A stretch of 64,000 bases of DNA from Elusimicrobiota bacterium (GTDB lineage Bacteria; Elusimicrobiota; Elusimicrobia; Elusimicrobiales; UBA9959): NCBI GenBank assembly GCA_016208085.1, contig JACQYT010000080.1:56514-120513 (forward strand), read 5' to 3'. The position numbers and the translations under genes are program-made. Below are positions 4,917-56,934 of this stretch, one piece after another. The notes under the pieces were generated by a model that searched no databases, was not told the DNA's origin, and saw nothing but the letters and a program-made list of their open reading frames with translations. Numbering within the stretch: the stretch's first letter is position 1; the number at the start of each line of letters is the position of its first letter.

Positions 4917-6431
4917 ATGGAAGAAAATAAACATCCGATAGAAAAAAATCCTCTGTTCGGGCAGTTGCCGCTTGAACTTTCAGAAAATATCCGGTCTCTC
5001 AACCCCTGGTGGAGCGATGAGGCCGCACCGACAGTGCCTTCCTTCCATCGTTGGATCTTCAAGCGTTTGAATCACATGCTCCATGAAGGGTTGACGCCTG
5101 CGACCGTACTTCGGGGTCCCCGCCGAGTCGGCAAAACGGTCATTCTCAGGCAAATCATCGAGGACTTGCTGGGATCTGCGGTCATTCCTTCACGCATACT
5201 CTATCTTCCCTTTGACGAGTTGCCCACGATGCAGGGCATCCAGGAACCCATTTTGACCGTCGCCCGGTGGTTCGAAAGGGAGGTTATGGGCTGTACTTTC
5301 AACACCTCGGCCCAACAAAATCAGCCGGCCTATCTGCTGTTGGATGAGGTGCAAAATTTGGAGTCCTGGGCTCCCCAGGTCAAGAATCTGGTGGATAACC
5401 ATTCCATGCGCATGCTCATCACTGGAAGCTCCTCGCTGCGCATAGAGGCTGGGCGCGACAGTCTTGCCGGACGAATCTCGACTGTGGATTTGGGCCCGCT
5501 GTCCACTAGGGAAATCGCCGAGATGCGCTTCGGGGCGCGAACAAAACCGATTTGGAACAACGGCCTCAATGGAATAGCGATTCCCGACTTTTGGCGGCAG
5601 GCCGTCGTCATCTGCCGCAAACAAACGGTTCTGCGCCGGAAAGCGTTCGCCGCTTTTTCCGATCGCGGCGCTTACCCGGTTGCTCATGAGAGGAAGGCTG
5701 CCCCGTGGTCCGAGATCGCGGATTATCTCAACGAAACCGTCATCCAGCGGGCTATCCGGCATGATCTACGCATGGGAGCGTGGGGCCAAAAACGGGATGA
5801 AAAGCTCTTGGAGGAAGTTTTCCGCTTGTGCTGCCGCTATGCGGGGCAGGCTCCGGGACAAAGGATCTTCGTCCCGGAAATCCATCAGGCGCTGTCCGTA
5901 AATATCGGCTGGAATAGGATACTTGACTACCTTCAATTTCTTGACAAGACGCTGCTCATCCGACTCATCAGACCGTTGGAGCTCAGATTAAAACGGCAAT
6001 CATCTCCGCCAAAGGTATGCTTGTGCGACCATTCCCTGCGCGCAAGTTGGCTTCAGGAGGTCGTTCCACTTGACCCTGACGGGCTTTCCAAGAATCCACA
6101 CCTTTCGGATTTGGCAGGACACTTGGCGGAAAGCGCGCTCGGCTACTTTCTGGCCTCGATCCCCAACCTGGATGTCGCATATTTTCCCGCGCGCGGCACG
6201 GAACCGGAGGTGGATTTTGTCATAACGGTGGGAACCAAACGGATTCCCATCGAGGTGAAATACCGCAAGTATATTGATCCCCACGACGACACTTTGGGAC
6301 TGCGCGCATTTTTGGAGAAATCCGTCTACAATGCGCCCTTTGGGCTTCTTGTGACCTTGGAGGATGATGTCACCGTGCTGGACCCGCGCATTATCCCCAT
6401 TTCATTGTCGGCTCTGTTATGGTTGAAATAG
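4917..6431 (+). CDS. AAA_14 / DUF4143-type ATPase with PD-(D/E)xK-like C-terminal region, nested in the R-M operon
   Basis: NPWW motif, Walker A GPRRVGKT, Walker B LLLDEVQ, LITGSSS...SLAGR, and C-terminal EVDFVITVG..IPIEVKYRK. There is a 24-nt gap after hsdM and the gene is on the same strand. Confidence 0.8.
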   Translation: MEENKHPIEKNPLFGQLPLELSENIRSLNPWWSDEAAPTVPSFHRWIFKRLNHMLHEGLTPATVLRGPRRVGKTVILRQIIEDLLGSAVIPSRILYLPFDELPTMQGIQEPILTVARWFEREVMGCTFNTSAQQNQPAYLLLDEVQNLESWAPQVKNLVDNHSMRMLITGSSSLRIEAGRDSLAGRISTVDLGPLSTREIAEMRFGARTKPIWNNGLNGIAIPDFWRQAVVICRKQTVLRRKAFAAFSDRGAYPVAHERKAAPWSEIADYLNETVIQRAIRHDLRMGAWGQKRDEKLLEEVFRLCCRYAGQAPGQRIFVPEIHQALSVNIGWNRILDYLQFLDKTLLIRLIRPLELRLKRQSSPPKVCLCDHSLRASWLQEVVPLDPDGLSKNPHLSDLAGHLAESALGYFLASIPNLDVAYFPARGTEPEVDFVITVGTKRIPIEVKYRKYIDPHDDTLGLRAFLEKSVYNAPFGLLVTLEDDVTVLDPRIIPISLSALLWLK

Positions 6432-6432
6432 T

Positions 6433-6457
6433 AAAAATTTTTGCGGCAAAAATTTTT
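6433..6457. repeat. Palindromic repeat AAAAATTTTTGCGGCAAAAATTTTT (copy 1 of 3)
   Basis: Perfect 10-bp arms around GCGGC, directly followed by AATG, the start of the next ORF. Near-identical copies lie at 32411..32435 and 56696..56720. Confidence 0.85.
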
Positions 6458-6458
6458 A

Positions 6459-7496
6459 ATGAAAGAATATAGAGAACAACTGCTGGACTTGATTCTTAAC
6501 TTCCTCTGGCGGCAGTGGTCCGCCCTGGGCGTATTGGGGACGTCCAGCTCGGAAGATGAATGGATCCTGGACCCGGAGCCTTTGCTTCTCTTCTCCCTTG
6601 AGACGGCGCGCTATGAGCCGCGCCTCTTTGACGAAATCCTTTCCTGGCTTTGGACCAACGGCGCCTTGCTTGATATCGCGCGCATCAAGAAGCTTTTATT
6701 GGAAAGAAATTCCGAGGAAACGGCCCGCGTCGTGGGCGGAACGCTTAATTACCTGGTTGATTTCGCGGACAATCGCAAGTGGCAGGGTATTGTGAAATTC
6801 GCGAATGAAAAGTTCCTGGTCAATTCCAAAGACAAGGCCGTCAGGGCGCTCTTCCGGCTTAGAACGGGCGAGCCTCATCCCATGGCGAAAGACGCGGATT
6901 GGCGGTTCATCCCCTTTAATCTTAACCGGCCGAAAATTTTAAGGATAAGAAGGGGCGCGGACGTCCCAGTAAACGCGCAGACGAATATCCGTTTTTTGTT
7001 AAGGCGGTTGTTCGGGGTCGGCGCGCGTTCCGAGGTGATTCTGTATCTGCTGACGCATGAATCCGGCGCTCCTGCCGAGATAGCCGATGCCACCGGCTAT
7101 TTTTGGCTTACCATACGCGACGTTCTGGAAGATTTGCGCGGCTCCAGGCAAATCCTTACAAAGCAGAAAGGCAAACGGATAGAATACTGGCTCTCGCAGA
7201 ATAAATGGTGGGATTTTATTTCCTCTTCCGCGCAGGAAACGCGGCGGCCCAAGTGGCTTAACTGGGCGGAGATTTATACGGCGTTATATATCCTCTGGAA
7301 TACCGTGGACGAAATAGCCGGGGGTTCGGAGTCCGAATATATGAAAAGCTCGCGCCTGCAGGACAGCCTTGAAAAGCTGTCGTCCGAGTTCGCGCAGGCG
7401 GGCATAGCTGTAGGCAATCCCCCGTCTCCGGGCCTTCCCGCTGAGATGCACCAGAGCGCCGCCTTGAAATTTATATCCGGAGCGCTTGGAGCATAA
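6459..7496 (+). CDS. Hypothetical protein (possible winged-helix segment), partner of the DUF4143 ATPase
   Basis: 345-aa ORF with protein-like composition. I recognise no catalytic motif. The segment RSEVILYLLTHESGAPAEIADATGYFWLTIRDVLEDLRGSRQILTKQKGKRIEYWL looks wHTH-like. The start is set at ATG 6459 because the TTG at 6441 lies inside a palindromic repeat. The 3' end overlaps the hsdS start by 11 nt. Confidence 0.6.
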   Translation: MKEYREQLLDLILNFLWRQWSALGVLGTSSSEDEWILDPEPLLLFSLETARYEPRLFDEILSWLWTNGALLDIARIKKLLLERNSEETARVVGGTLNYLVDFADNRKWQGIVKFANEKFLVNSKDKAVRALFRLRTGEPHPMAKDADWRFIPFNLNRPKILRIRRGADVPVNAQTNIRFLLRRLFGVGARSEVILYLLTHESGAPAEIADATGYFWLTIRDVLEDLRGSRQILTKQKGKRIEYWLSQNKWWDFISSSAQETRRPKWLNWAEIYTALYILWNTVDEIAGGSESEYMKSSRLQDSLEKLSSEFAQAGIAVGNPPSPGLPAEMHQSAALKFISGALGA

Positions 7497-15429: not shown

Positions 15430-15468
15430 CGAACGACGACCTGAAAATTGCACTGCGCAATTTTCAGG
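15430..15468. repeat. Conserved hairpin element CGAACGA-GACCYGAAAATTGC-loop-GCAATTTTCRGG (copy 1 of 3); acts as an inter-tRNA hairpin
   Basis: 12-bp stem 15440..15451 / 15457..15468. Related copies lie at 27096..27178 and 47715..47752, each with the same CGAACGA head. Confidence 0.75.
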
Positions 15469-15475
15469 TAAAAAC

Positions 15476-17017: not shown

Positions 17018-17392
17018 GGTTTTTAATTATTCCAAACCCGTATTTCACGATCAGGATGCAGAACCGGCCGGTTTTTGCTCCAGGAGCCGGAAAATGAATT
17101 TAAGGTTATAATACAAAAAAGACAGTTCAAGAGTCAGATTGGCCGGGAAACATCGCCGTTGTGACTCTTGAATTCCAACTTCCGGCTTATGCTCTTTACG
17201 CTTGAATTTATGCATGTTCCACCCCTTTACTCACGCTGGTTTATCCTCTAAATCCGTTAAATTGCCGGGGATCACCACGACACTATGCTGTCGTGTTGTT
17301 CGGCTGCGCTATTTATGCGGCAATAGCCCGAAAACCCCGGGCCGGGTATGTAAAATGTTGCCGGGCAACATTTTATAGTAAAATTTAAACCG

Positions 17393-18298
17393 ATGAAAAA
17401 ACCTTTTCCGGCGTATCTTGAAAGTTTTGAAAGCGGAGAGCTGGGGAGAATAGCCGGAAAGCTCGGAAGCTTGCTTTCGGCCTGCCGCCTGTGTCCGCGC
17501 AAATGCGGCGCCGACAGGGCGCGCGGCGAGACGGGCTTTTGCGGCGCCGGAAAGAAGCTGAAAATCTCGTCCCATTTTCCGCATTTCGGCGAGGAACCCT
17601 GCCTTGTCGGGCGGAACGGCTCGGGCACGATATTTTTCGCGCACTGCAATCTTAAGTGCGCCTTCTGCCAGAATTACGAAATAAGCCATTCGGCCGAGGG
17701 ACGGGAGGCGGAGACCGAAGAACTTGTCGGCTGTATGCTGGAGCTTCAAAAGCTGGGCTGCCACAATATAAACCTCGTGACGCCCACGCATTTTGCGCCG
17801 CAGATAGTTTCTGCCTTGGAACTCGCTGCCGGCGGCGGGCTGCGGCTGCCGCTGGTTTACAACTGCGGCGGGTATGAATCCGCTGAGGTCCTGGAACTGC
17901 TGGCCGCCGTAGTGGACATTTACATGCCGGACGCGAAGTTCTCCGCTCCGGAGGTTTCGCGGAGATTCTGCGGCGCTCCGGATTATTTTGACGCGCTGAA
18001 GACCGCGCTGAAGATAATGCATTCGCAGGTCGGGGACCTGGCGATAGAGAACGGGCTTGCCAGGCGCGGGCTGCTGATAAGGCATCTCGTTATGCCGCAA
18101 GGCCTGGCTGGCACTGGGGAGATAATGAATTTCATCGCGAAGGAACTGTCGCCGGACGCTTATGTCAACATAATGGCCCAGTACAGGCCGTGCGGCGAAG
18201 CGCGCAAATTCCCGGAGATAAACAGGCCTGTCACGCCCGGTGAATACAGGGATGCGACGCGGCTGGCGGTTGCGGCAGGACTCCGCAGGGTTGACTAA
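17393..18298 (+). CDS. Radical SAM protein, PflX/pyruvate-formate-lyase-activase-like (COG1313-type)
   Basis: N-terminal CRLCPRKCGADR...GFCG cluster and the radical-SAM CX3CX2C motif in FFAHCNLKCAFCQN. Confidence 0.8.
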   Translation: MKKPFPAYLESFESGELGRIAGKLGSLLSACRLCPRKCGADRARGETGFCGAGKKLKISSHFPHFGEEPCLVGRNGSGTIFFAHCNLKCAFCQNYEISHSAEGREAETEELVGCMLELQKLGCHNINLVTPTHFAPQIVSALELAAGGGLRLPLVYNCGGYESAEVLELLAAVVDIYMPDAKFSAPEVSRRFCGAPDYFDALKTALKIMHSQVGDLAIENGLARRGLLIRHLVMPQGLAGTGEIMNFIAKELSPDAYVNIMAQYRPCGEARKFPEINRPVTPGEYRDATRLAVAAGLRRVD

Positions 18299-27106: not shown

Positions 27107-27178
27107 CCCGAAAATTTCAGAGGATATTTTTATTCCTCAAGTTGTCAATACAAATCGATATTAATTGAAATTTTCGGG
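27107..27178. terminator. Long hairpin between convergent genes (13-bp arms CCCGAAAATTTCA / TGAAATTTTCGGG)
   Basis: Arms at 27107..27119 and 27166..27178 enclose an inner GAGGA..TCCTC hairpin and are preceded by the GCGAACGAACA head of the repeat family. The element abuts the aroA stop. Confidence 0.5.
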
Positions 27179-28420
27179 TTAATGGAATATTTTTTTAAAG
27201 TCTTTGAAGAATGCCGGGTAGGATTTTTTTACGCAGCCGGGGTTCTTTATTTTAACGGGTTTCGCCGCAAGTATCGCCCCCACGGCGGCCGTCATCGCTA
27301 TGCGGTGGTCGTTGAACGTGTCAACGGCCCTGCCGCCGGCTATCGTCTGCGGGCCCTTGATCACAAGGCTGTCTTTGCCTGCTCCGGCCTTCAGGCCCAG
27401 GGACATGAAAAGCGCCAGGGTGGCCCGTATCCTGTCCGATTCTTTGAGTTTCAGTTCTCCGATCCCGTTTATGACGGTCGTGCCGCTGGCGCGGGCGGCT
27501 AAAAGCGCCAGCAGCGGCAACTCATCCACCATGGCCGGCACTTCGCCCGGCCGTATCCGGATGCCTTTGAGCCGTGAACTCAAAACCGTAAGGTCACCGG
27601 CCGGTTCAGGCGCATAATGCGTCTTTCTGACGGATATTTTCGCGCCCATTGCTTTAAGTATTTTTACCAGGCCGGTCCTGCCGGGGTTCAGTCCGACATT
27701 TTTTATCGTGAGCCTGAAGCCTTCCAGCAGGCAGGCCGCGGCCATAAAAGGCGCGGCCGAAGAGAGGTCTCCCGGCACGCGTATCTCTTTCGCCTTGAGC
27801 CGCCCCGGCTTTAAATAGATAGTCAGGCCGGCCGCCGAGATACGGGCGCCGAGATGTTTAAGCAGGCGCTCCGTATGGTCGCGGGTCCGGAAGCGCCCGG
27901 TTATGGAGGTGGCGCCTTGCGCGTAAAGAGCGGCCAGCAGTATCGCCGATTTTATCTGCGCGCTGGGGACCGTGAGCCTATGAGCCGCGCCTTTTAAAGC
28001 GGAGCCTGAGATATATATCGGCGCTCTGCCGCCGGAAAGGCGGATTTTGGCGCCCATAAGTTCAAGCGGCGCCGCTACCCTGGACATGGGTCTTTTTAAA
28101 AGGGAGTCTTCGCCGGTTATAGCCGAATCAAAATCCTGGCCGGCCAGCAGGCCGCTCAGCAGGCGCAGGGTAGTGCCGGACGCGCCGGCATTAAGAGTCC
28201 CTGTCGGTTTTTTCAGGCCGCCAAGCCCCAAGCCTTTTACCAGCAGGCGGTTTTTTGAAGCGGAAATCCCGACCCCGAGTTTTTTCAGGCAGGCGGCGGT
28301 GGCCAGCGTGTCTTCGCAGAGCGAGGGGTTGTCTACGCGCGTGTTCCCGTCCGCTATGGCGGCGAGTAGCAGCGCCCTGTGGGTTATGGCCTTGTCCGGC
28401 GGCGGAATATAAGGTTTCAT
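27179..28420 (-). CDS. aroA: 3-phosphoshikimate 1-carboxyvinyltransferase (EPSP synthase)
   Basis: MKPYIPPPDKAITHRALLLAAIADGNTRV, LNAGASGTTLRLL, and the C-terminal DHRIAMTAAV. The start is trimmed by 40 codons because the track extension is a read-through of the repeat 28421..28540. Confidence 0.9.
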   Translation of the reverse strand: MKPYIPPPDKAITHRALLLAAIADGNTRVDNPSLCEDTLATAACLKKLGVGISASKNRLLVKGLGLGGLKKPTGTLNAGASGTTLRLLSGLLAGQDFDSAITGEDSLLKRPMSRVAAPLELMGAKIRLSGGRAPIYISGSALKGAAHRLTVPSAQIKSAILLAALYAQGATSITGRFRTRDHTERLLKHLGARISAAGLTIYLKPGRLKAKEIRVPGDLSSAAPFMAAACLLEGFRLTIKNVGLNPGRTGLVKILKAMGAKISVRKTHYAPEPAGDLTVLSSRLKGIRIRPGEVPAMVDELPLLALLAARASGTTVINGIGELKLKESDRIRATLALFMSLGLKAGAGKDSLVIKGPQTIAGGRAVDTFNDHRIAMTAAVGAILAAKPVKIKNPGCVKKSYPAFFKDFKKIFH

Positions 28421-28601
28421 AAGTTGACAAGTTGATAAGTAGGGGAAGTTGATAAAGCGGGGGACAGTTGACAAGGCTGGGGAAGTTGATAAGTAAGGGA
28501 GTGATTTACTCTGTTCACTTATCAACTTGTTGTTTCCCACTTGTCAACTTATCAACCGCCGGTTTCACTTGCCAACTGTTGTTCCCCACTTTGTCAACTA
28601 G
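28421..28601. repeat. ~180-bp imperfect palindrome built from 5 + 5 inverted copies of AGTTGAYAA / TTRTCAACT
   Basis: The left arm has 5 copies of AGTTGA(C/T)AA separated by G-rich spacers. The right arm has 5 copies of the complement. The centre lies near 28505. Confidence 0.85.
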
Positions 28602-31448
28602 TCAATTGGAGCGAAGCAAAAACCTTGCACTAGATTTATAAAACGACTTACATATTATTAAAATAAGTCCAAGCAAAGTTATAAGTAAGATCAAACTTGG
28701 TTCTGTCATTCGTTGAGTGTCTTCTCCTAAGTCTAACGATTGGTTGCTTAAAAGCAATTTGTCCTGTTTTTGTTTCAGAATCGCTTTTTGTGCTTCGTTT
28801 TCAACTACAATATATGAAGTTATAGGTGTCATTATTTTTGAGATAAAACTATGCTTGACTAAATTAAGCCATTCTTTGCCGGATGTTTCAGGATGGAAGG
28901 TTTGTGAAATCCATTTGCCTTGCATTATCAAACCTGTCTGCCAACTTTTTTCAATTATTTCCGAATTATTAACTTCAAATAATGTCTCCTTTAAAACAAT
29001 ACTCGGTTTATTGTGATTTGGTAAATAAGCTATTGGTTTTTGTTTGTTGGGATATGCCAATACCTTATGATTAAAATTTAACTCTAATGTGCCGGTAAGC
29101 GGTATTTTAGGATTTGACAATAAAGAATGAGATTCCAAACCCCATTTTTGGTTAATCACGTAGAACAAATTATTTTCAGGATAAGCTATTTTAAAATCGG
29201 AAAAGTCTTTTTCAATTATTGCATTTTCAATACTATCAGTTACTACCACAATAACAGGATAAGCATTGTTCCTGTCTTTATATGAATTAAATAAAACCGT
29301 CCTAATTGCTCTATCCAAAAAAAACCCGCCATCAAAAATCTGTTGGTCAAATTTCTGTCTCCAATTATTGTCTAAAGGAAGGCTGCGGGTATATGTGTTT
29401 GCAAAACTTATTTTGGCATTCTCCTTGCCAATTAGATTTTTACTTAACAGCGATTTAATTCTTTGAGCAAAATCTTCCTTAAAATTTTCTTTTCCAGATG
29501 AAATGTCAACTATAAAGTGATAATACGGCTTTCTCTGAATTTTTTTCAACGTTGTCTTTTCTTTTGCTGAAACATATACAATATTTTCATTTGAACTGGT
29601 AGTAGTTCTTATTTCTGAGTGCTCTTTGTAATTTCCTAATCTTAATGTGGTTCCATCAATAGTAATTTTAACCGGCTCTTGATGGATAAATTCTATTCCT
29701 GTTTTTCGAGTTTCACCTTTAGAAAACGGAAAAACTCTGAAAACCACTTTATTGCCTGACAGATAATGTAAAATACCAGGGTCCCTATTTTCATTTCTGA
29801 TTTGTGAGAATACCCATATTGCAGATTTTTTCTCCGCTAATATACCCATTTCCTTTTTATTTCCAACATATAAGTAATAATCGCTAATCCAACATCCGAT
29901 GGGCAGTTCAATTGTTGTGGCATATTCTGAAAGCTGGGTGGTTTCACTATGATTTGTAATTTCTAAATCCATCCAACTTGTCCAAGCATTTTGTTTTTCG
30001 TCAAAAGTGCTGCTTGAATTTATCTTTGAGATTTTGACTTGAGTATTGCCGATGTTTTCAGCCCGCAATTTAAATGAGGTTTTGCCGTAAAAAACATTTT
30101 CAATAGTGTTAATCTTTGAATCAGACAGGGTAAGGTTGTCTAAAACCAGCCAATTAAAATAAGAAGACAGATAAGGGATTTGTTTTTCAAAAAGCAAATT
30201 TAAATTTCTGTCTTTGTGATATTTGACTACATCTAGTGTTTTTGAAAGAGAGATTTTGTCAATGTTATAGGTTTTAGAATAGTCCGGTTTATACAAGTAC
30301 TCAAGCGTTTCGTTTAATGCGCGTCTGTCCATTAAATAAGTGGCTGTGATAAATAGTGGTAATACAAAAAAACCTGCTACTGAAAGGAATACCGCTAATT
30401 TTTTAGATAGATAGGTTTGTGGGAATTTATAGTCATTTAAAAGTTCGTTTAAATGGATAATAAAAAGCGCCAACGGCGTAAGCATTAAGAAGCCTGTCCC
30501 GACAGCAGCAATTGCAATGATTGAAAATGGCAAAAAGGGCAGGAAAACCAAGAAAAAATAAAAGGTAAAAGCAAACGTTAAACTCCTTCCTGCAAAAAGA
30601 AATAGTCTATACAATTTATTCTGCGAATTCGGCAGGCAAATAAGCAATCCATTTATTACTGCAAGAATGTAAAACCAGATATTGCTAAAATCACCGAAAG
30701 TGCCTGAATTTTCAACTCCAAATTTATTAAAAAAATATTCCTTGTTATTTAATGCTAAACCTAAAAGTGGAAATATAAGAGCAATGGGGATTTTCCAAGC
30801 CAACTGATATTTAACCCACATAGCGGCTTTTTTAAGACCCAGGATGTAAATCCCCCTAATTAAAAAGAATAAGAAGATAAGTGTCGCGATAATTGCCAGA
30901 ATAACCATCGCGTGCATGCTAAAATTTGAATCAACAGGTTTCCACAAGGGGAATATTAGTTGGGTAAATAAATACCAGGAAATAGGAATAATTAGCGCTA
31001 TTAAAAAATTCTTCCAAACCTTTTGTTCTTTATTCTCAGGCGTTAGAAGTGCAACAAGTGTAAAGAGAGAATATGCAAGTGTCGGCATTAAGAAGGTTCC
31101 GACATACAAGATCATATTTGTTGGAACCATCCATTGCGGGATATCAAAAGGGATTATTACATCAAAATAATTTCCATAGAGATATAAGAATGATATGTAA
31201 CTTAACAATGCTGTAATGGAATAGAATGCCGAAACTTCTTTCTTCTTAATTACAAGGTCAACAGCATAAATAAAATTGAGCGTGCCCAATATCGCTAATG
31301 TGCCGCCAAATTTTTTCCAAAGACCTATGCTCTCAGCCGATAAAAGACTTTTGATAATATTGTATTCTCCCAAAAAGATAGCGAACAGTATTCCGATTGG
31401 AATAGCATTGATTATAAACAACCATTTTGGATTAAGTGAGTTTCGCAT
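28602..31448 (-). CDS. MSEP-CTERM-type exosortase substrate: polytopic membrane N-terminus plus a VIT-like/extracytoplasmic domain plus a C-terminal sorting signal
   Basis: 948 aa. There are ~12 predicted TM helices in the first ~370 aa. The C-terminus is MTEPSLILLITLLGLILIICKSFYKSSARFLLRSN (M-T/S-E-P, a TM helix, then a basic tail). Strongly AT-rich. Confidence 0.7.
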   Translation of the reverse strand: MRNSLNPKWLFIINAIPIGILFAIFLGEYNIIKSLLSAESIGLWKKFGGTLAILGTLNFIYAVDLVIKKKEVSAFYSITALLSYISFLYLYGNYFDVIIPFDIPQWMVPTNMILYVGTFLMPTLAYSLFTLVALLTPENKEQKVWKNFLIALIIPISWYLFTQLIFPLWKPVDSNFSMHAMVILAIIATLIFLFFLIRGIYILGLKKAAMWVKYQLAWKIPIALIFPLLGLALNNKEYFFNKFGVENSGTFGDFSNIWFYILAVINGLLICLPNSQNKLYRLFLFAGRSLTFAFTFYFFLVFLPFLPFSIIAIAAVGTGFLMLTPLALFIIHLNELLNDYKFPQTYLSKKLAVFLSVAGFFVLPLFITATYLMDRRALNETLEYLYKPDYSKTYNIDKISLSKTLDVVKYHKDRNLNLLFEKQIPYLSSYFNWLVLDNLTLSDSKINTIENVFYGKTSFKLRAENIGNTQVKISKINSSSTFDEKQNAWTSWMDLEITNHSETTQLSEYATTIELPIGCWISDYYLYVGNKKEMGILAEKKSAIWVFSQIRNENRDPGILHYLSGNKVVFRVFPFSKGETRKTGIEFIHQEPVKITIDGTTLRLGNYKEHSEIRTTTSSNENIVYVSAKEKTTLKKIQRKPYYHFIVDISSGKENFKEDFAQRIKSLLSKNLIGKENAKISFANTYTRSLPLDNNWRQKFDQQIFDGGFFLDRAIRTVLFNSYKDRNNAYPVIVVVTDSIENAIIEKDFSDFKIAYPENNLFYVINQKWGLESHSLLSNPKIPLTGTLELNFNHKVLAYPNKQKPIAYLPNHNKPSIVLKETLFEVNNSEIIEKSWQTGLIMQGKWISQTFHPETSGKEWLNLVKHSFISKIMTPITSYIVVENEAQKAILKQKQDKLLLSNQSLDLGEDTQRMTEPSLILLITLLGLILIICKSFYKSSARFLLRSN

Positions 31449-31977
31449 TATGTCGTGTTAATTCAGTAAGTGTAAAATTAACCCCTAAATAAAAGATTAT
31501 CAGAAAAAAAAGGTAGATAAAAGTCCCTTCGGCTTGGTGTAACCAGGAAATGTGTCCGTCTGCCAGTTTCGCTCCTGATCTGTGTATAAAAACAGAAAAT
31601 AAAATTCTGGAAGTATTTGCAAAAATTGTAAAAATGTATGCGGCAAGCAGCGTAATTGGTAAAGCGGCTATTTTTCTGTTTCTGTCTTGTAAGAATTTAA
31701 TAACCGCGAATGCAAGCATTATAAAACACAATATCCAAAAGTTGAAACCTGAACAAGATTTGTCAATTACAACGTTCAGTTTATCGTGAAAATATCCACC
31801 GTCATTGACACAAATCGAGTTTGAGTTTGTAATTATTTCAATGATTTTGTCGGTTGGTTTAAGTAGAAAATAAAGGTCGGTATTGTCGGCAAGCGTATAA
31901 GCGAATTTTAAAAGTATAAAAACCGCTATCACTGTAAAATAGTATGGTGTATTTCTGTTCGCAGTCATTTTTGTCAA
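31432..31977 (-). CDS. Small exosortase-family transpeptidase (XrtK-like)
   Basis: The exosortase catalytic triad motifs are visible: IDKSCSGFNFW (Cys), FANTSRILF (Arg) and WLHQAEGTFIY (His). 181 aa and polytopic. It overlaps the substrate gene by 17 nt. Confidence 0.75.
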   Translation of the reverse strand: MTKMTANRNTPYYFTVIAVFILLKFAYTLADNTDLYFLLKPTDKIIEIITNSNSICVNDGGYFHDKLNVVIDKSCSGFNFWILCFIMLAFAVIKFLQDRNRKIAALPITLLAAYIFTIFANTSRILFSVFIHRSGAKLADGHISWLHQAEGTFIYLFFLIIFYLGVNFTLTELTRHNAKLT

Positions 31978-32409
31978 CTAGAACTTTCTGTTAAGGCAAA
32001 AATCAATAGCTTTGATGTATGAAATGGGTCCCAGGCCGCGTATCTGTCCGGCGCAGGCGGCTTTTGTCACCGAGAGCCGGCGGAACGGTTCCCTTTTCTT
32101 TATGTCGGAAAGATGCACCTCAACGGCCGGGAGCCCGGAGGCTTTTATGGCGTCCCTTATGGCGTAGCTGTAATGGGTGTACGCGGCGGGGTTTATTATA
32201 AGAGAGTCCGCCCAGTTTAAATTCCGCGCTATCAGGTCTATTATGCGGCCTTCGCAATTTGACTGGAATATCCTTGTTTTTACGCGTTTTGAGGCGGCAT
32301 ATTTTCTGATAAGGGCGTTCAGCTCTTTAAGCGTGAGCCTGCCGTATATTTCGGGCTCCCTTAAGCCCAGGAAATTAAGATTGGGGCCGTGGATTATAAG
32401 TATGTTCAT
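31978..32409 (-). CDS. aroQ: Type II 3-dehydroquinate dehydratase
   Basis: MNILIIHGPNLNFLGLREPEIYG is the type II DHQase N-terminus, and INPAAYTHYSYAIRDA is also present. The start is trimmed to Met7 because the track extension MRQKFL is a translated palindromic repeat. Confidence 0.9.
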   Translation of the reverse strand: MNILIIHGPNLNFLGLREPEIYGRLTLKELNALIRKYAASKRVKTRIFQSNCEGRIIDLIARNLNWADSLIINPAAYTHYSYAIRDAIKASGLPAVEVHLSDIKKREPFRRLSVTKAACAGQIRGLGPISYIKAIDFCLNRKF

Positions 32410-33557
32410 TAAAAATTTTTGTCGCAAAAATTTTTACCATACCCCGCCCGCAAGCCGCGGGGTAACCTTAATGCGGTCAGCGTTCCTTTAAGTATGCCGG
32501 GCGCGATATTGTTCACGGCCTTTATCCGCCCGGGCCGTTCTATCAGCAGGAACCGGTTTTTACCGGCTCCGGCTTTTTTATCATAGCAAATCAGCCTGTG
32601 AAAAGCGCGGAAGTCAAAGCATTTCGCGGCGAGCGGCGGGGCCTGCGTTTTCCATAATATGCCGGATACGGTTTTTTGATGCGCGGGTTTGAGGATTTTA
32701 AGTTTTATGGATAACAGGCACGCGTAGCGCATACCCCACAGCACGGCAGCCCCGTGCGCGAGGCGTCCGCCTGAGGCGGATTCAAAAGCGTGGCCGGCCG
32801 TATGGCCGAAATTTAAGCGTTCCCTTACGCCGGTCTTGTCCCGCTCGTCGCGCGCCGTCAGCGACAGCTTGAAATCCGCGCAGGCGCTCACCAGTTTCAC
32901 AAGGGCCGCCGTTTCGCCTTTCAGGGCGCGTCCGAGATTTTTAAGAACGCGGCGCCGCAAAGCCGCCGGCCCGATCAGCGCGTATTTCACCAGTTCGCCC
33001 GCGCCCGCGCTCAGCTCGTCCCGGCCCAGGGTTTGAAGAAAAGCGGCGTCGCAGACGGTCAGAGCGGGCTGGTAAAATGCGCCGGCCATATTCTTAATCC
33101 CGGCGAGGTCCACGGCCGTCTTCCCGCCGAGGCCCGCATCTATCTGGCCCAGAAAAGTGGTCGGCACGCTTATCCAGCTTATGCCGCGCATATAAAGAGA
33201 AGCCGCCAGGCCCGCCAGGTCAGTGACCGAGCCCCCGCCCGCCGCGATCAAAAGGGAGTTTCTTGAAAAGCCGCGCTTCAGCATGAACGAGAGGAGTTCT
33301 TCAAGCGCGCGGAAAGTTTTGGCGGGGCGTCCCGCCGGCAGGACGAAAATATGCGTTCCGGCCCGCCGCCGTCCCAGCATTTTTTTAAAGGTTCTTTTAA
33401 ATTTCTTCAGGCAGCCCCGGTCGGTCGCCAGGCAGATATGGCCGGCCCTGGCGAAAAGCTCCGGCGCCAGATCGGTAAGCGGCGGCAGATCCCGGCCGCA
33501 GACGGCCCGGACGGTCTTAGCGGTCTTTATATCGCGCTTTAAAAAAGTTTTTGTCAT
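32409..33557 (-). CDS. aroB: 3-dehydroquinate synthase
   Basis: AAGGGSVTDLAGLAAS glycine-rich NAD motif and the metal-binding H residues in NFGHTAGHAFE. There is a 1-nt stop/start overlap (TAATG) with aroQ. Confidence 0.85.
   Translation of the reverse strand: MTKTFLKRDIKTAKTVRAVCGRDLPPLTDLAPELFARAGHICLATDRGCLKKFKRTFKKMLGRRRAGTHIFVLPAGRPAKTFRALEELLSFMLKRGFSRNSLLIAAGGGSVTDLAGLAASLYMRGISWISVPTTFLGQIDAGLGGKTAVDLAGIKNMAGAFYQPALTVCDAAFLQTLGRDELSAGAGELVKYALIGPAALRRRVLKNLGRALKGETAALVKLVSACADFKLSLTARDERDKTGVRERLNFGHTAGHAFESASGGRLAHGAAVLWGMRYACLLSIKLKILKPAHQKTVSGILWKTQAPPLAAKCFDFRAFHRLICYDKKAGAGKNRFLLIERPGRIKAVNNIAPGILKGTLTALRLPRGLRAGYGKNFCDKNF
32411..32470. repeat. Two-hairpin repeat element (AAAAATTTTTGTCGCAAAAATTTTT + CCCCGC..GCGGGGTAACCTTA), copy 2 of 3, embedded in the aroB 3' end
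   Basis: Same architecture as 56696..56753 in the opposite orientation. It encodes the last ~20 aa and the stop of aroB, and it abuts the aroQ start codon. Confidence 0.8.
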
Positions 33558-47721: not shown

Positions 47722-47766
47722 AAGACCCGAAAATTGCTCCGCAATTTTCGGGATAGGTCTTTTTTG
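47722..47766 (+). terminator. rpsA terminator hairpin (copy 3 of the CGAACGA..CCCGAAAATTGC family)
   Basis: 12-bp stem CCCGAAAATTGC / GCAATTTTCGGG (47726..47752) followed by a TCTTTTTT run. Confidence 0.7.
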
Positions 47767-47770
47767 GGTC

Positions 47771-47798
47771 TTGACAACCGGGAACCGTCTGCTATACT
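47771..47798 (+). promoter_or_regulatory. Orphan near-consensus sigma70 promoter (TTGACA - 16 nt - TGCTATACT)
   Basis: TTGACA at 47771..47776 and TATACT at 47793..47798 with a TGC extended -10, the same TGCTATACT as the hsdM promoter. No + strand CDS lies downstream. Confidence 0.45.
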
Positions 47799-47895: not shown

Positions 47896-48882
47896 TTATT
47901 TTTTGAAATATTCCTTTCCACGCCGGTCTATATAGAAAACTTTCCCTTTCAGGACGACTCTGGCAATGCCGCCTTTAAACGAGGCGACCTCGTCATATTT
48001 GAAAGGTATCAGCTCTTTTCCGGTCTTGTCTATAAAGCCCCATTTGCCGCTTAAAGTCTTTAATACCGGGGCCAGGCCTTCGCTGAAAGAACCGCACATG
48101 AAGTAATTAAAGGGCAGCCGCCCGGCGCCATTCACGTCTATATAGCCGCAGCGCCCCGGGTCGCCGGCCAGCTTTTCGGCATGGGCCAGCCCCTCGCTGA
48201 CAGGCCCGATGTTAAAAAATTCCCTGGCCTTAAAAATTTTTGTTTCCCTGTTTATAAATCCGAAAGTCCGGCGGAACTGCGCGGCGGCGAAACCGCCGTC
48301 AAAGGGAAACGCCGCCTCATAAACCGGCGGCAGGGCCTCCGCGCCCTGTTTGTCTATATAGCCGTAGAACCCGCCGGACTTTACCCTGGCCAGGCCTTCG
48401 CTGAAAGGGTATATTTCGTCATACTTCGTCGGGATGAACTGTTTGGTTCCAAGCGGTATTATGCCCCAGCGTTTGTCCTTTTTCGCAGCGGCCATGCCGT
48501 CGTTGACGGTCAACGCTTCTTCATACTCAAACGGTATCGCGGATGCCCCGTCTTTATCTATGTAGCCCCAGCGCCCTTTTGATTTAGCCGGCGCCAATCC
48601 TTCGCTGAAAGCCCCGGCCGACTGGTAAGACGCCTTTATTGCAAACCGCCCCGAAACGTCAATGTAGCCGTATTTGCCGCCGGACATAACAAGGGCCAGG
48701 CCTTCGCTGAACGGCTTGGCCGCGTTATAGCGCGGGGAAATAATTATTTTCCCGTCCTGGTCCGCGTAGCCCCATTTTGAGCCGGCACGGTACGGAATAA
48801 GTTCCTTGTCCGGGCTTTGGGCCGGCGCGGCGGAAAGGCAGAATGCCGCGGAAAGAAGCGAAAGCGACAGTTTTTTTAGCAT
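47896..48882 (-). CDS. Secreted WG-repeat (KWG) protein
   Basis: Signal peptide MLKKLSLSLLSAAFCLSAAPAQ and about 9 repeats of the form KWGYID..G...IP.KYD.A..FSEGLA.V. Confidence 0.8.
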   Translation of the reverse strand: MLKKLSLSLLSAAFCLSAAPAQSPDKELIPYRAGSKWGYADQDGKIIISPRYNAAKPFSEGLALVMSGGKYGYIDVSGRFAIKASYQSAGAFSEGLAPAKSKGRWGYIDKDGASAIPFEYEEALTVNDGMAAAKKDKRWGIIPLGTKQFIPTKYDEIYPFSEGLARVKSGGFYGYIDKQGAEALPPVYEAAFPFDGGFAAAQFRRTFGFINRETKIFKAREFFNIGPVSEGLAHAEKLAGDPGRCGYIDVNGAGRLPFNYFMCGSFSEGLAPVLKTLSGKWGFIDKTGKELIPFKYDEVASFKGGIARVVLKGKVFYIDRRGKEYFKK

Positions 48883-48987
48883 ATGCCGGGTAAGGTTATT
48901 GTATGCCTTTATCGGGTTTTAAGCAATATCCCCCTTTTAAAAAGGGGGAAAGAGGGGGATTTTTTTATAGGCGGGCTGAAATTTCAG

Positions 48988-49037
48988 CTAGTGTAGCGTC
49001 CCGCAAATAACTAGACATTTGCGGGACGCTACACTAG
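48988..49037. repeat. REPIN-like perfect 21-bp inverted repeat with GTAG head (CTAGTGTAGCGTCCCGCAAAT / ATTTGCGGGACGCTACACTAG)
   Basis: Arms at 48988..49008 and 49017..49037. The 9-bp direct repeat TAGGCGGGC lies at 48968..48976 and 49035..49043. Confidence 0.8.
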
Positions 49038-49104
49038 GCGGGCGGTTGCCGGATGAACCGTTATAATGTTTTTGTATAATGGGGGTTAAGGATTAAGGAG
49101 CTTT

Positions 49105-56500: not shown

Positions 56501-56592
56501 TTCCCAGCGGAATATACATCTTCCTGGTGAAGGCTGTCAAAGCCGGCCAGGGAAGCGTGAAAGGAAAAGGCAAGATAGCCTTGATTAAATAA
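53590..56592 (+). CDS. PQQ/FG-GAP beta-propeller + FN3/Ig surface protein with a T9SS-type C-terminal domain; it lacks a signal peptide and is probably 5'-truncated
   Basis: ADLDGDGGKEVVF, ADLNSDGIKEVLI, GDLDGDGDLEVVF and ADIDGDGKLEIFF, with BamB-like G..KW strands. FN3 modules are present. The segment AVIGVPKDGKKIWGNAVTIKADA... is paralogous to 24650..24990 of the giant gene. The C-terminal tail is VYPNPVRGNDRPTLHI...GIYIFLVKAVKAG...GKIALIK. Confidence 0.75.
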   Translation: MNGDGRPEMLGGTTSGNQIQAFDRFARWVWRYILGSHAISTPAVERLTADGTPAVFAGSFDRYLRSIDGKTGVLNWAFPAYNWIWSSPAVADLDGDGGKEVVFASDTGAPNLYVLNASQGALKWSASIGGSARASAGIADLNSDGIKEVLIGSAGGAFYCLNGKTGAVQWTFQTGGEIVSSAAIGDLDGDGDLEVVFGSTDGFLYVLDGKGVLLWKTNLGSPVYSSPALARRGSDTRLDIYITTLAGRLAILRGTDGFLLGGFQVDAQVVSSPVVADIDGDGKLEIFFHDRKGDTNSVMSGDRFWAVRDVNSSVSPYAREWPMFRRDSAHTGVYPLPDSPPAKVTGLSVNAPAEGGRLELLWTANAEPDIASYRIYRNGEFKIQLSSLSYTDTGLVDGTTCTYQVGAVDRSGNEGPKSDSVSGMPKDRLAPVSRIVSPSDGTKLSAASVTISGTARDNGVAGVKKVEIRIFDLQEGATWFLASETSAIFNFEMTGLKDNRTYQIDSRAEDWEGNREQTPVEVQFNVILPPLAITGLTAIVHATGNSATLSWNPVSEADIAGYRIYSGDGNLIATISTTTFELTNLTYGAGYTYYVSAVDATGLESPRAGVSFTTPVNGSARAVIGVPKDGKKIWGNAVTIKADATDSASKVQFQCRKEGEAVYTDISSADSNAPYAVYWNVSDARISTGTYYLRAVAFDSDGLPDLSPPEIRVLVDDANADIVEDGNPEVDPNAQHRKMEKLISDNNAQKIETLDGTNIVIPPGAVPEGEQIQIQVVGNVEASLQAGGKILKPAGVFRRFTFISGATQFKGKLTLTLPVPDGNGDGIVDGTDIKISLLKVYFFSESKGEWVAVESLNSNTPAPLSAVVTSASPAQNQKSVSVQVDHFTLFGLFQEQLVSEELRLGELYVYPNPVRGNDRPTLHIEAGKADRLEIRIHDLAGDLIHSIDINSLPSIVDGKYVYRYQWDTAGVPSGIYIFLVKAVKAGQGSVKGKGKIALIK

Positions 56593-56675: not shown

Positions 56676-56895
56676 CTGTAGCGGCAGAGTTTACTAAAAA
56701 TTTTTGCGGCAAAAATTTTTATAATGCCCCGACCTTTGGTCGGGGTAACCTTAGGGCAAGAGGGAGTTTGAGGGAGAAAGAAATTTCTCCCTCATCCCCG
56801 GCAAGGTGTTGAAGAAAACCCCGTGCCGGGTACGATAAAATGTTGCTTCAACATTTTATTCTGTCCAAAAAGGCAAGGCAAGCTTTGCCGCTACA
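56676..56895. repeat. 220-bp array of six different short hairpins bracketed by inverted GTAG-headed units (CTGTAGCGG ... CCGCTACA)
   Basis: Contains the two-hairpin element 56696..56753 and GAGGGAGAAA-GAAA-TTTCTCCCTC (56771..56794). It also holds a CCCGGCA..TGCCGGG hairpin, AAAATGTTG-CTT-CAACATTTT (56837..56857), and unit A in inverted orientation (56872..56895, 22 of 25 matches to 53314..53338). Confidence 0.8.
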
Positions 56896-56934
56896 ATGTA
56901 TAATATTAAGTACGATTTCGCGGACGGAGGATTT

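Follow-up and report, generated by a model that had tools for sequence, protein, structure and literature searches.

What kind of element can form the tail of one gene and directly abut the start of the next? The question is raised by a 64,000-nucleotide stretch of an Elusimicrobiota bacterium of the UBA9959 lineage (contig JACQYT010000080.1, positions 56,514 to 120,513; hereafter the window), in which an AT-rich perfect 27-mer palindrome, TAAAAATTTTTGCNGCAAAAATTTTTA (counting the conserved flanking T and A; here called P), recurs at gene junctions. A search allowing up to three mismatches recovers three copies of P in the window, with cores at 6433-6457, 32411-32435 and 56696-56720, and none in 100 dinucleotide-preserving shuffles; these are precisely the three sites at which an initial annotation of the window had placed it. 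We propose, with a probability of about 0.6, that P is the conserved terminal module of a lineage-specific, non-coding, hairpin-forming family of interspersed mosaic repeats in a narrow uncultured clade of Elusimicrobia, comparable to the repetitive extragenic palindromic sequences and bacterial interspersed mosaic elements (REP/BIME), to REP doublets forming hairpins (REPINs) or to miniature inverted-repeat transposable elements (MITEs). The elements are present in many copies, are modular with conserved ends (P and a hairpin termed H4), lie between genes in either orientation, are absent from most orthologous sites, and carry symmetric variants of the palindrome arms that recur from locus to locus.

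The palindrome and its mosaic

The elements in the window and the genes that they abut are as follows.

6432-6458, no strand assigned: P copy 1, a solo P of sequence TAAAAATTTTTGCGGCAAAAATTTTTA
6459-7496, plus strand: conserved hypothetical gene (345 residues) of a restriction-modification (R-M) operon, ATG flush with P; the NCBI model (P0121) starts at 6459
17330-17376, plus strand: P-less fragment, the 3' arm of H3 followed by an H4-like hairpin; the ATG at 17393 lies 16 nt downstream
31978-32409, minus strand: aroQ (type II dehydroquinase, 143 residues), ATG flush with P; gene callers start AroQ there
32409-33557, minus strand: aroB (3-dehydroquinate synthase), last 19 codons (RLPRGLRAGYGKNFCDKNF) and stop derived from the element
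32410-32436, no strand assigned: P copy 2, with the centre GTCGC
32437-32470, plus strand: inner flank of P copy 2, consisting of the linker CCATA, hairpin H1 (CCCCGC..GCGGGG, 32442-32462) and TAACCTTA
56695-56721, no strand assigned: P copy 3, which terminates a full-length mosaic
56722-56859, plus strand: rest of the full-length mosaic (165 nt including P), consisting of the linker TAATG, H1 (56727-56745), a linker with AAGAGGGAG, H2 (56770-56793), H3 (about 56797-56830) and H4 (56834-56859)
Module H1: CCCCGCCC..GGGCGGGG
Module H2: GAGGGAGAAA..TTTCTCCCTC
Module H3: CCGACACGGGG..CCCCGTGTCGG
Module H4: GATAAAATGTCG..CGACATTTTAT

Copy 1, located inside a type I R-M operon, constitutes the entire spacer between the TAG stop (6429-6431) of a gene for an AAA_14/DUF4143 ATPase and the ATG of the 345-residue gene. 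At copy 2 the aroB frame is translated across P on the minus strand (codons ..GKNFCDKNF), and the outer end of the palindrome forms TAATG, in which the aroB stop overlaps the aroQ start at 32409. The adjacent segment, 32437-32470, is a truncated mosaic whose minus strand encodes the aroB residues RLPRGLRAGYG, short of which the AroB relatives stop. Copy 3 belongs to an element between the gene for a 1000-residue beta-propeller/fn3 protein (stop at 56592) and an M3 peptidase gene (ATG at 56896). The initial annotation had the palindrome running straight into the ATGs at 6459 (plus strand) and 32409 (minus strand), with which the NCBI model and the gene callers agree; it also had the element encode the end of aroB, which proves to comprise 19 codons and the TAA of TAATG. 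The false MRQKFLM N-termini that it had traced to the element arise from an in-frame TTG within P.

In copies 2 and 3 a GC-rich second hairpin followed by GGGGTAACCTTA (32442-32470 and 56727-56753) lies 3' of P, as had been described. The two had been taken to stand in opposite orientations, but both are on the plus strand and show an identical order of linker (CCATA or TAATG, of the TAYYAT type), hairpin and GGGGTAACCTTA, and they are opposed only relative to the neighbouring genes. Nor is the element a fixed unit of two hairpins, as had been supposed: P is instead one end of a modular mosaic with up to five. The fullest elements, of about 165-168 nt, consist of P, a TAYYAT linker, H1, a linker with AAGAGGGAG, H2, H3 and H4. 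Between genomes whose identity in a coding stretch is 74%, the composite at 56695-56859 and its counterparts match at 80-86%, and RNAalifold predicts five hairpins for it, with compensatory changes in four pairs. We found 28 unique elements delimited by P and H4; they range from 54 nt, where P is joined straight to H4, to 168 nt, a length series that looks like the product of internal deletions. P and H1-H4 thus occur in full, partial and solo arrangements, an architecture like that of BIMEs: in the window itself copy 1 is a solo P, copy 2 is P with H1 and copy 3 the full mosaic, and in one element (L038/L096) both ends are formed by P.

The terminal hairpins P and H4 differ from each other, and the outward-facing ends of the elements have only A(T/A)TAAAA in common. 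Read inward, both termini begin with TAAAA (the H4 end as ATAAAATG), and two of the three frames of P are free of stop codons; an open reading frame (ORF) arriving at the element is therefore either halted at once or extended. The predicted hairpin of P is weak, with a folding energy of -5.8 kcal/mol as RNA and -7.6 as DNA, its stem being nearly all A-U and its U-run belonging to the stem. Independent short-read (Logan) contigs from the window's own population break within the element (L119 1-45 begins inside H1/P and L123 1-30 inside H4), as is expected of a repeat.

Distribution, gene context and relatives

A scan for the P core in one genome per species returned at least 66 stretches. Among the matches listed, about half come from three Elusimicrobia metagenome-assembled genomes (MAGs; UBA9634, SO_2016_GW1_47 and X2_MetaBAT.4) with many copies each, the others being single matches in unrelated taxa. 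A scan of JGI metagenomes added 43 further stretches, nearly all from the sample that gave SO_2016_GW1_47, and no copy was found in the viral contigs scanned. De-duplication at up to five mismatches leaves at least 96 unique sites in at least four related Elusimicrobia assemblies (the three above and the window genome, plus a few JGI contigs), so that the further copies that the initial annotation anticipated do exist. Exact copies predominate (59 sites), with 14, 13, 5, 3 and 2 sites showing one to five mismatches respectively. G and C are equally frequent as the central base, which means that P has no intrinsic polarity. P is identical in the window genome and SO_2016_GW1_47, which are 74% identical at the nucleotide level in one long orthologous coding stretch. 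A literature search found neither the P sequence in such a context nor repeats of such a kind in Elusimicrobia.

We then classified the surroundings of 73 P sites, the genes being predicted by a codon-usage model that had been trained on long ORFs. The sites fall between tandem genes in 45 cases, convergent genes in 10 and divergent genes in 6, and none lies inside a gene. P's own TAA serves as the stop codon at 16 of the 70 adjoining gene ends; eight more ends finish 0-1 nt from P, and three ORFs continue into the element in the manner of aroB. Stop codons are supplied by the H4 end as well. On the other side of the junction an ATG stands flush after the 27-mer in 15 of the 64 adjoining starts, about a quarter. 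It is the outer, clean side of P that adjoins genes, with the linker and hairpins on the opposite side, and the 28 P..H4 elements show an orientation ratio of 11:9 relative to transcription. With convergent spacers outnumbering divergent ones and both orientations occurring, this is a REP-like pattern, the opposite of that shown by promoters or operators. The window genome uses Shine-Dalgarno (SD) motifs, as in the AAGGAG ahead of the ATPase gene; there is no such motif in P. Genes that start flush with P may hence be translated by reinitiation, as the TAATG of aroB/aroQ would allow, or by SD-independent initiation on the AU-rich leader. Sequestration of a ribosome-binding site or start codon in the hairpin, as had been suggested, finds no footing here: P is devoid of an SD motif, the ATG lies outside the weak stem, and the 10 convergent copies have no start nearby.

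The aroB-aroQ junction offers the clearest comparison with relatives. The window AroB (382 residues) has a 100% identical match in an 'Elusimicrobia bacterium' MAG. The other 119 homologues listed have 306-372 residues, apart from one fusion of 596, and the closest of them cover at most 95% of the 382-residue query; the 19-residue tail occurs in none of the 119, contrary to what would be expected if the tail were shared coding sequence. The closest AroB among the matches listed (84% identity) ends in ..GTLTALKRR, where the window protein ends in ..GTLTALRLPRGLRAGYGKNFCDKNF. The aroB-aroQ spacer of the closest relative (L067 4104-4243), 140 nt long, is made up of short tandem repeats (CCGGTATCCGGTGG.., TACCGGTTACTGATTACCGGTTACCGCCGT..) unrelated to the element, and in a relative with 76% identity aroB and aroQ overlap by the four nucleotides ATGA. 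Since the relatives' AroB ends and junctions are without the element, the AroB tail and its stop are element-derived and the aroQ ATG is ancestral. The junction in L067 has thus been colonised by a repeat of another kind. Directly downstream of aroQ the window carries a low-GC island (about 28600-32000; about 33% against about 55%) encoding an exosortase EpsH-like protein and a 948-residue membrane protein, where L067 has aroA; the aro operon has probably received this island by horizontal transfer.

At copy 1, homologues of the 345-residue protein start with M(S/L)LKEYREQ and the window protein with MKEYREQ, such that the flush ATG corresponds to codon 3 (CTG) of the relatives and the N-terminus is two residues shorter than in most of them. 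The gene is preceded in relatives by a 196-residue ORF that overlaps it by 20 nt (L120 1930-2520, L121 1927-2520), and in the window by the 504-residue AAA_14/DUF4143 ATPase gene (4917-6431) and then P. As the upstream gene differs from that of the relatives, P here stands at a gene-replacement boundary. The initial annotation had portrayed a mobile or recombinogenic unit that inserts at operon junctions: that the element is repeated, inserted and a supplier of junction codons is borne out, whereas its recombinogenic character comes down to this one anecdotal case.

Elsewhere the element is present in one genome and replaced by an unrelated spacer in the other (L062 against the window at 48882, L051/L029, L078/L100 and L112/L099), and in four orthologous comparisons the flanking genes are unchanged on both sides. 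These comparisons support the view that the element is an insertion relative to close relatives. Upstream of the gene starting at 48882 the window has two other strong hairpins (48925-49060, minus strand; CTAGTGTAGCGTCCCGCAAAT..ATTTGCGGGACGCTACACTAG and TCCCCCTTTTTAAAAGGGGGA), in place of which the L062 orthologue carries H4 and P.

Copying and competing explanations

The variants of P bear on how copies arise. In variant copies nine arm pairs are altered on both sides and yet remain complementary, against three that are not complementary, and by our own estimate independent change would yield about 0.2 complementary double changes. The same symmetric variants recur across loci (TATAAATTTTTGCSGCAAAAATTTATA at three, TAAAAATTTTCGCSGCGAAAATTTTTA at three), which implies a subfamily structure, with copies made from variant copies and the dyad symmetry kept. 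Propagation through a hairpin intermediate would fit these variants better than the independent evolution of protein-binding sites. The mobility that we infer rests on this subfamily structure and on presence and absence at orthologous sites. We posit that new copies would be made from existing ones by a trans-acting enzyme recognising the terminal hairpins in single-stranded DNA, recombination being a less likely copying route, and that only insertions at cistron boundaries would persist. An ORF entering the element would either end at the element's TAA or continue until the next stop codon, and P could directly adjoin an ATG with its outer end (..TTTTTA); it is by virtue of this TAA, or of this outer end lying against an ATG, that the element 'supplies' stops and abuts starts. 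Effects on expression would be secondary, candidates being an mRNA hairpin rich in A and U where two cistrons meet and the loss of the SD motif before flush genes, which would come to depend on reinitiation or SD-independent initiation.

Several observations weigh against a mobile repeat. Clustering of the neighbours in the copies' surroundings revealed no recurrent gene family, transposase or integrase; E. coli RayT, run by phmmer against every ORF of 80 residues or more in 684 kb, a fraction of each genome, gave no match; and the aligned elements show no clear target-site duplication and no long terminal inverted repeat. Random insertion does not readily explain why start codons peak sharply at distance zero. 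P copies, most of them exact, are much better conserved than neutral DNA, a pattern suggestive of selection, of gene conversion or of activity that is very recent in every genome, and the orthologous P of the pair L065/L080 (77% identical overall) is kept at 27 of 27 positions beside a spacer diverged with indels. The 'empty' sites bear unrelated spacers at the divergence sampled, at which insertion is inseparable from replacement. Strain-level filled and empty alleles were sought through look-ups of exact AroB, AroQ and edge proteins, which returned only assemblies of the same structure or contigs breaking inside the element.

Much of this would sit well with P being a host cis-element under purifying selection, either a DNA dyad for a dimeric protein or a factor-bound RNA hairpin that marks cistron boundaries, to which the hairpin modules would be accessory. 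Roles proposed for it at such boundaries are 3'-end protection, processing, weak bidirectional termination or reinitiation. We regard this explanation as rather unlikely, though it draws on the low number of decayed copies among the at least 96 sites, the fully retained palindrome in the L065/L080 pair, the tie of P to gene ends (with stops flush and the convergent sites outnumbering the divergent), and the start-codon peak. A second palindrome family, P2, with a TTGC-S-GCAA centre, likewise lies after stop codons. What speaks for copied repeats over evolution in place is that P is missing from most orthologous sites and that a modular mosaic with variant subfamilies recurs at several loci; moreover, the RNA hairpin is weak and lacks the GC stem with free U-tract of a canonical terminator. 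An intrinsic (Rho-independent) terminator was for its part rejected on account of the A-U stem of -5.8 kcal/mol and the missing free U-tract, and a terminator scan does not flag P; H1 too is mostly without a U-tract across copies. A broader variant, in which P and P2 together would form a host-maintained cistron 'punctuation' of the clade, with the hairpin and a dedicated protein acting in mRNA 3'-end formation or processing or in SD-independent restart at the adjoining ATG, selected to stay perfect while its positions turn over, strikes us as less probable again.

It is improbable that P is a promoter or the operator of a global regulator, with the adjoining TAYYAT as a -10 box. TACCAT, TATAAT or TACTAT does lie beside one side of P in about half of the copies, and some copies are found 25-50 nt upstream of an SD motif and ATG (L060, L039). 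Yet the TAYYAT side faces gene 3' ends and starts about equally often, no -35 box lies at a workable distance, an ATG abutting P leaves no room for a transcript start, and TACCAT is unconserved in the orthologous pair L065/L080; the 10 convergent against 6 divergent copies run counter to such a role, and canonical promoters (TTGACA/TTGCAA-N16-18-TATAAT) occur elsewhere in the same genomes. Sigma-70, sigma-54 and Bacteroidetes-type promoters built from P and TAYYAT were each rejected, given their misfit spacings, the convergent or antisense contexts and the canonical promoters elsewhere.

A site for site-specific recombination (attC- or dif-like) bounding gene cassettes would account for two inverted arms of 10-13 bp around a short centre, for single genes enclosed by two copies of P (folE in L018, an FGE-like gene in L016) and for a gene upstream of copy 1 unlike that of the relatives. 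Against this, P flanks housekeeping genes whose operon order is conserved (aroE-aroC-aroK-aroB-aroQ), both neighbours are unchanged in the four orthologous comparisons, no integrase adjoins the copies by neighbour clustering, and the centre is just 1-5 nt, for which reasons we give this reading little credence. DNA uptake sequences were rejected as well, half-sites occurring almost never alone and the density of about 1 per 20 kb lying far under that of known uptake sequences.

It is still harder to see the 165-nt composite as a gene for a structured non-coding RNA, or as a riboswitch of the molybdenum cofactor (Moco) type, with P as promoter or first helix. The five predicted helices, with a few compensatory changes, and a sub-threshold match of 56715-56824 to the whole model of the Rfam Moco riboswitch RF01055 (25.9 bits, E about 3e-4) would favour it, but the gathering score of 36 bits is not reached, the match relies on bases peculiar to the window, which the family alignment assigns to helix H3, and it is not reproduced in five other composites, so that we judge it spurious. 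The occurrence of both orientations (11:9), the deletion series and the lack of molybdenum-related genes nearby likewise tell against it, and at gathering thresholds Rfam finds no known RNA family in the window. Chance similarity, to which isolated loose-pattern matches in unrelated genomes might be appealed, or an assembly artefact is practically out of the question, for shuffles predict no copies and identical ones occur in assemblies of independent studies and samples (NCBI MAGs, JGI, ENA, Logan), always between intact ORFs.

Known repeats, look-alike palindromes and significance

Returning to the interspersed mosaic repeat favoured here, its closest parallels are the REP/BIME of enterobacteria and the REPINs of Pseudomonas with their REP-associated tyrosine transposases (RAYTs). 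These too are short palindromes in tens to hundreds of copies, extragenic and enriched at gene 3' ends and between operon genes, as P is; they form mosaics with other short motifs, are conserved beyond neutral DNA within a genome, and keep hairpin symmetry in their variants. There is, however, no sequence relation, and P lacks the inverted-doublet arrangement. GTAG is missing from P, H1-H4 and the flanks of the aligned copies, P beginning instead with (A)TTAAAAA, and no RAYT was found among the ORFs in the 684 kb of partial genomes covered. REP dyads are imperfect and GC-rich, whereas P is perfect and AT-rich. REP sequences usually differ between species; here, by contrast, one 27-mer is common to genomes about 74% identical in a coding stretch.

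The Correia elements of Neisseria (Correia repeat enclosed elements, CREE, also Neisseria miniature insertion sequences, NEMIS) and MITEs of the IS630/mariner type resemble the family in being non-coding units of 100-170 nt between genes with internal deletion variants, co-transcribed with their neighbours and with TA at their boundaries. Those elements, including IS630-Tc1-mariner MITEs, have terminal inverted repeats of about 20-30 bp, where the element described here has two dissimilar hairpin ends; the TA duplication of such MITEs has a possible counterpart in the TA on both sides of P, but this lies within the dyad, and the H4 end has no consistent TA. We know of no parent insertion sequence for the P element. 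Mycobacterial interspersed repetitive units (MIRUs) are also intercistronic repeats that overlap the upstream stop and downstream start codons, but are tandem units of 40-100 bp with small in-frame ORFs along the operon, unlike the single, palindromic P elements that lie in either orientation (11:9). Rickettsia palindromic elements (RPEs) share with P the translation of a palindromic repeat in a host protein (the 19-residue AroB tail and two read-through cases); RPEs, however, insert in-frame within genes, and P gives only C-terminal extensions, most of its copies being intergenic. Palindrome-associated transposable elements (PATEs) derived from the IS200/IS605 insertion sequences, which are substrates of HUH transposases, are similar in their dissimilar terminal hairpins, their lack of an evident target duplication and the symmetry kept in variants; they differ in that no TnpA was found in the partial genomes covered and that the P element has no defined target of 4-5 nt, its left flanks being often TCAT, TGAT or TTAT, which is confounded with start and stop codons. 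Integron attC sites differ by their GTTRRRY cores, absent here, and no integrase occurs among the neighbours of P, whose flanking genes are housekeeping genes.

The P2 family has the form CCCGAAAATTGC-(S or 3-5 nt)-GCAATTTTCGGG and has the TTGC-S-GCAA centre in common with P. Its copies are often found after a stop codon or a tRNA 3' end, and it is flagged as terminator-like on the minus strand. The window copies bear a conserved tail, GCGAACGAAGA.

P2 in the window: 15440-15469; 47726-47752; a split copy at about 27107-27180
P2 elsewhere: L013:3301, L029:5269, L031:4625, L039:5884, L043:4843
Look-alike palindrome in groES-groEL spacers: L005, L006, L015, L020, L026, L034, L045, L054, L057, L066

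A near-consensus TG-extended promoter, TTGACA-16-TATACT (47771-47798, plus strand), faces a gap of about 90 nt to the 3' end of a minus-strand gene; the gap contains no ORF and no Rfam match, and the promoter could drive a small or antisense RNA. At least 10 Rhodanobacter/Dyella genomes carry the look-alike, AAAATTTTTGAGGCAAAAATTTT, between groES and groEL, where it directly abuts the groEL ATG; its loop holds GAGG, likely an SD motif. It is the one recurrent case among the loose-pattern matches outside Elusimicrobia, which otherwise stand alone. It could serve as a conserved, AU-rich hairpin that controls how groEL is translated, and looks like an unrelated convergent case.

In practical terms, P generates false N-terminal extensions (MRQKFLM), element-derived C-terminal tails as in AroB, and breaks in short-read assemblies, for which reasons annotators of Elusimicrobia MAGs should mask the repeat. 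The family looks new, its kind is familiar (REP/BIME/MITE-like), and it occurs in a phylum without a cultured model for such elements. Unusual traits are its 27-bp AT-rich perfect dyad across genomes of about 74% identity, TAAAA at both ends, and the roughly one quarter of adjoining starts that are flush without an SD motif. If active hairpin-dependent transposition holds true, the enzyme responsible is still to be identified; if a host function does, P would provide a handle on the punctuation of operon mRNAs and on SD-less translation in this phylum.

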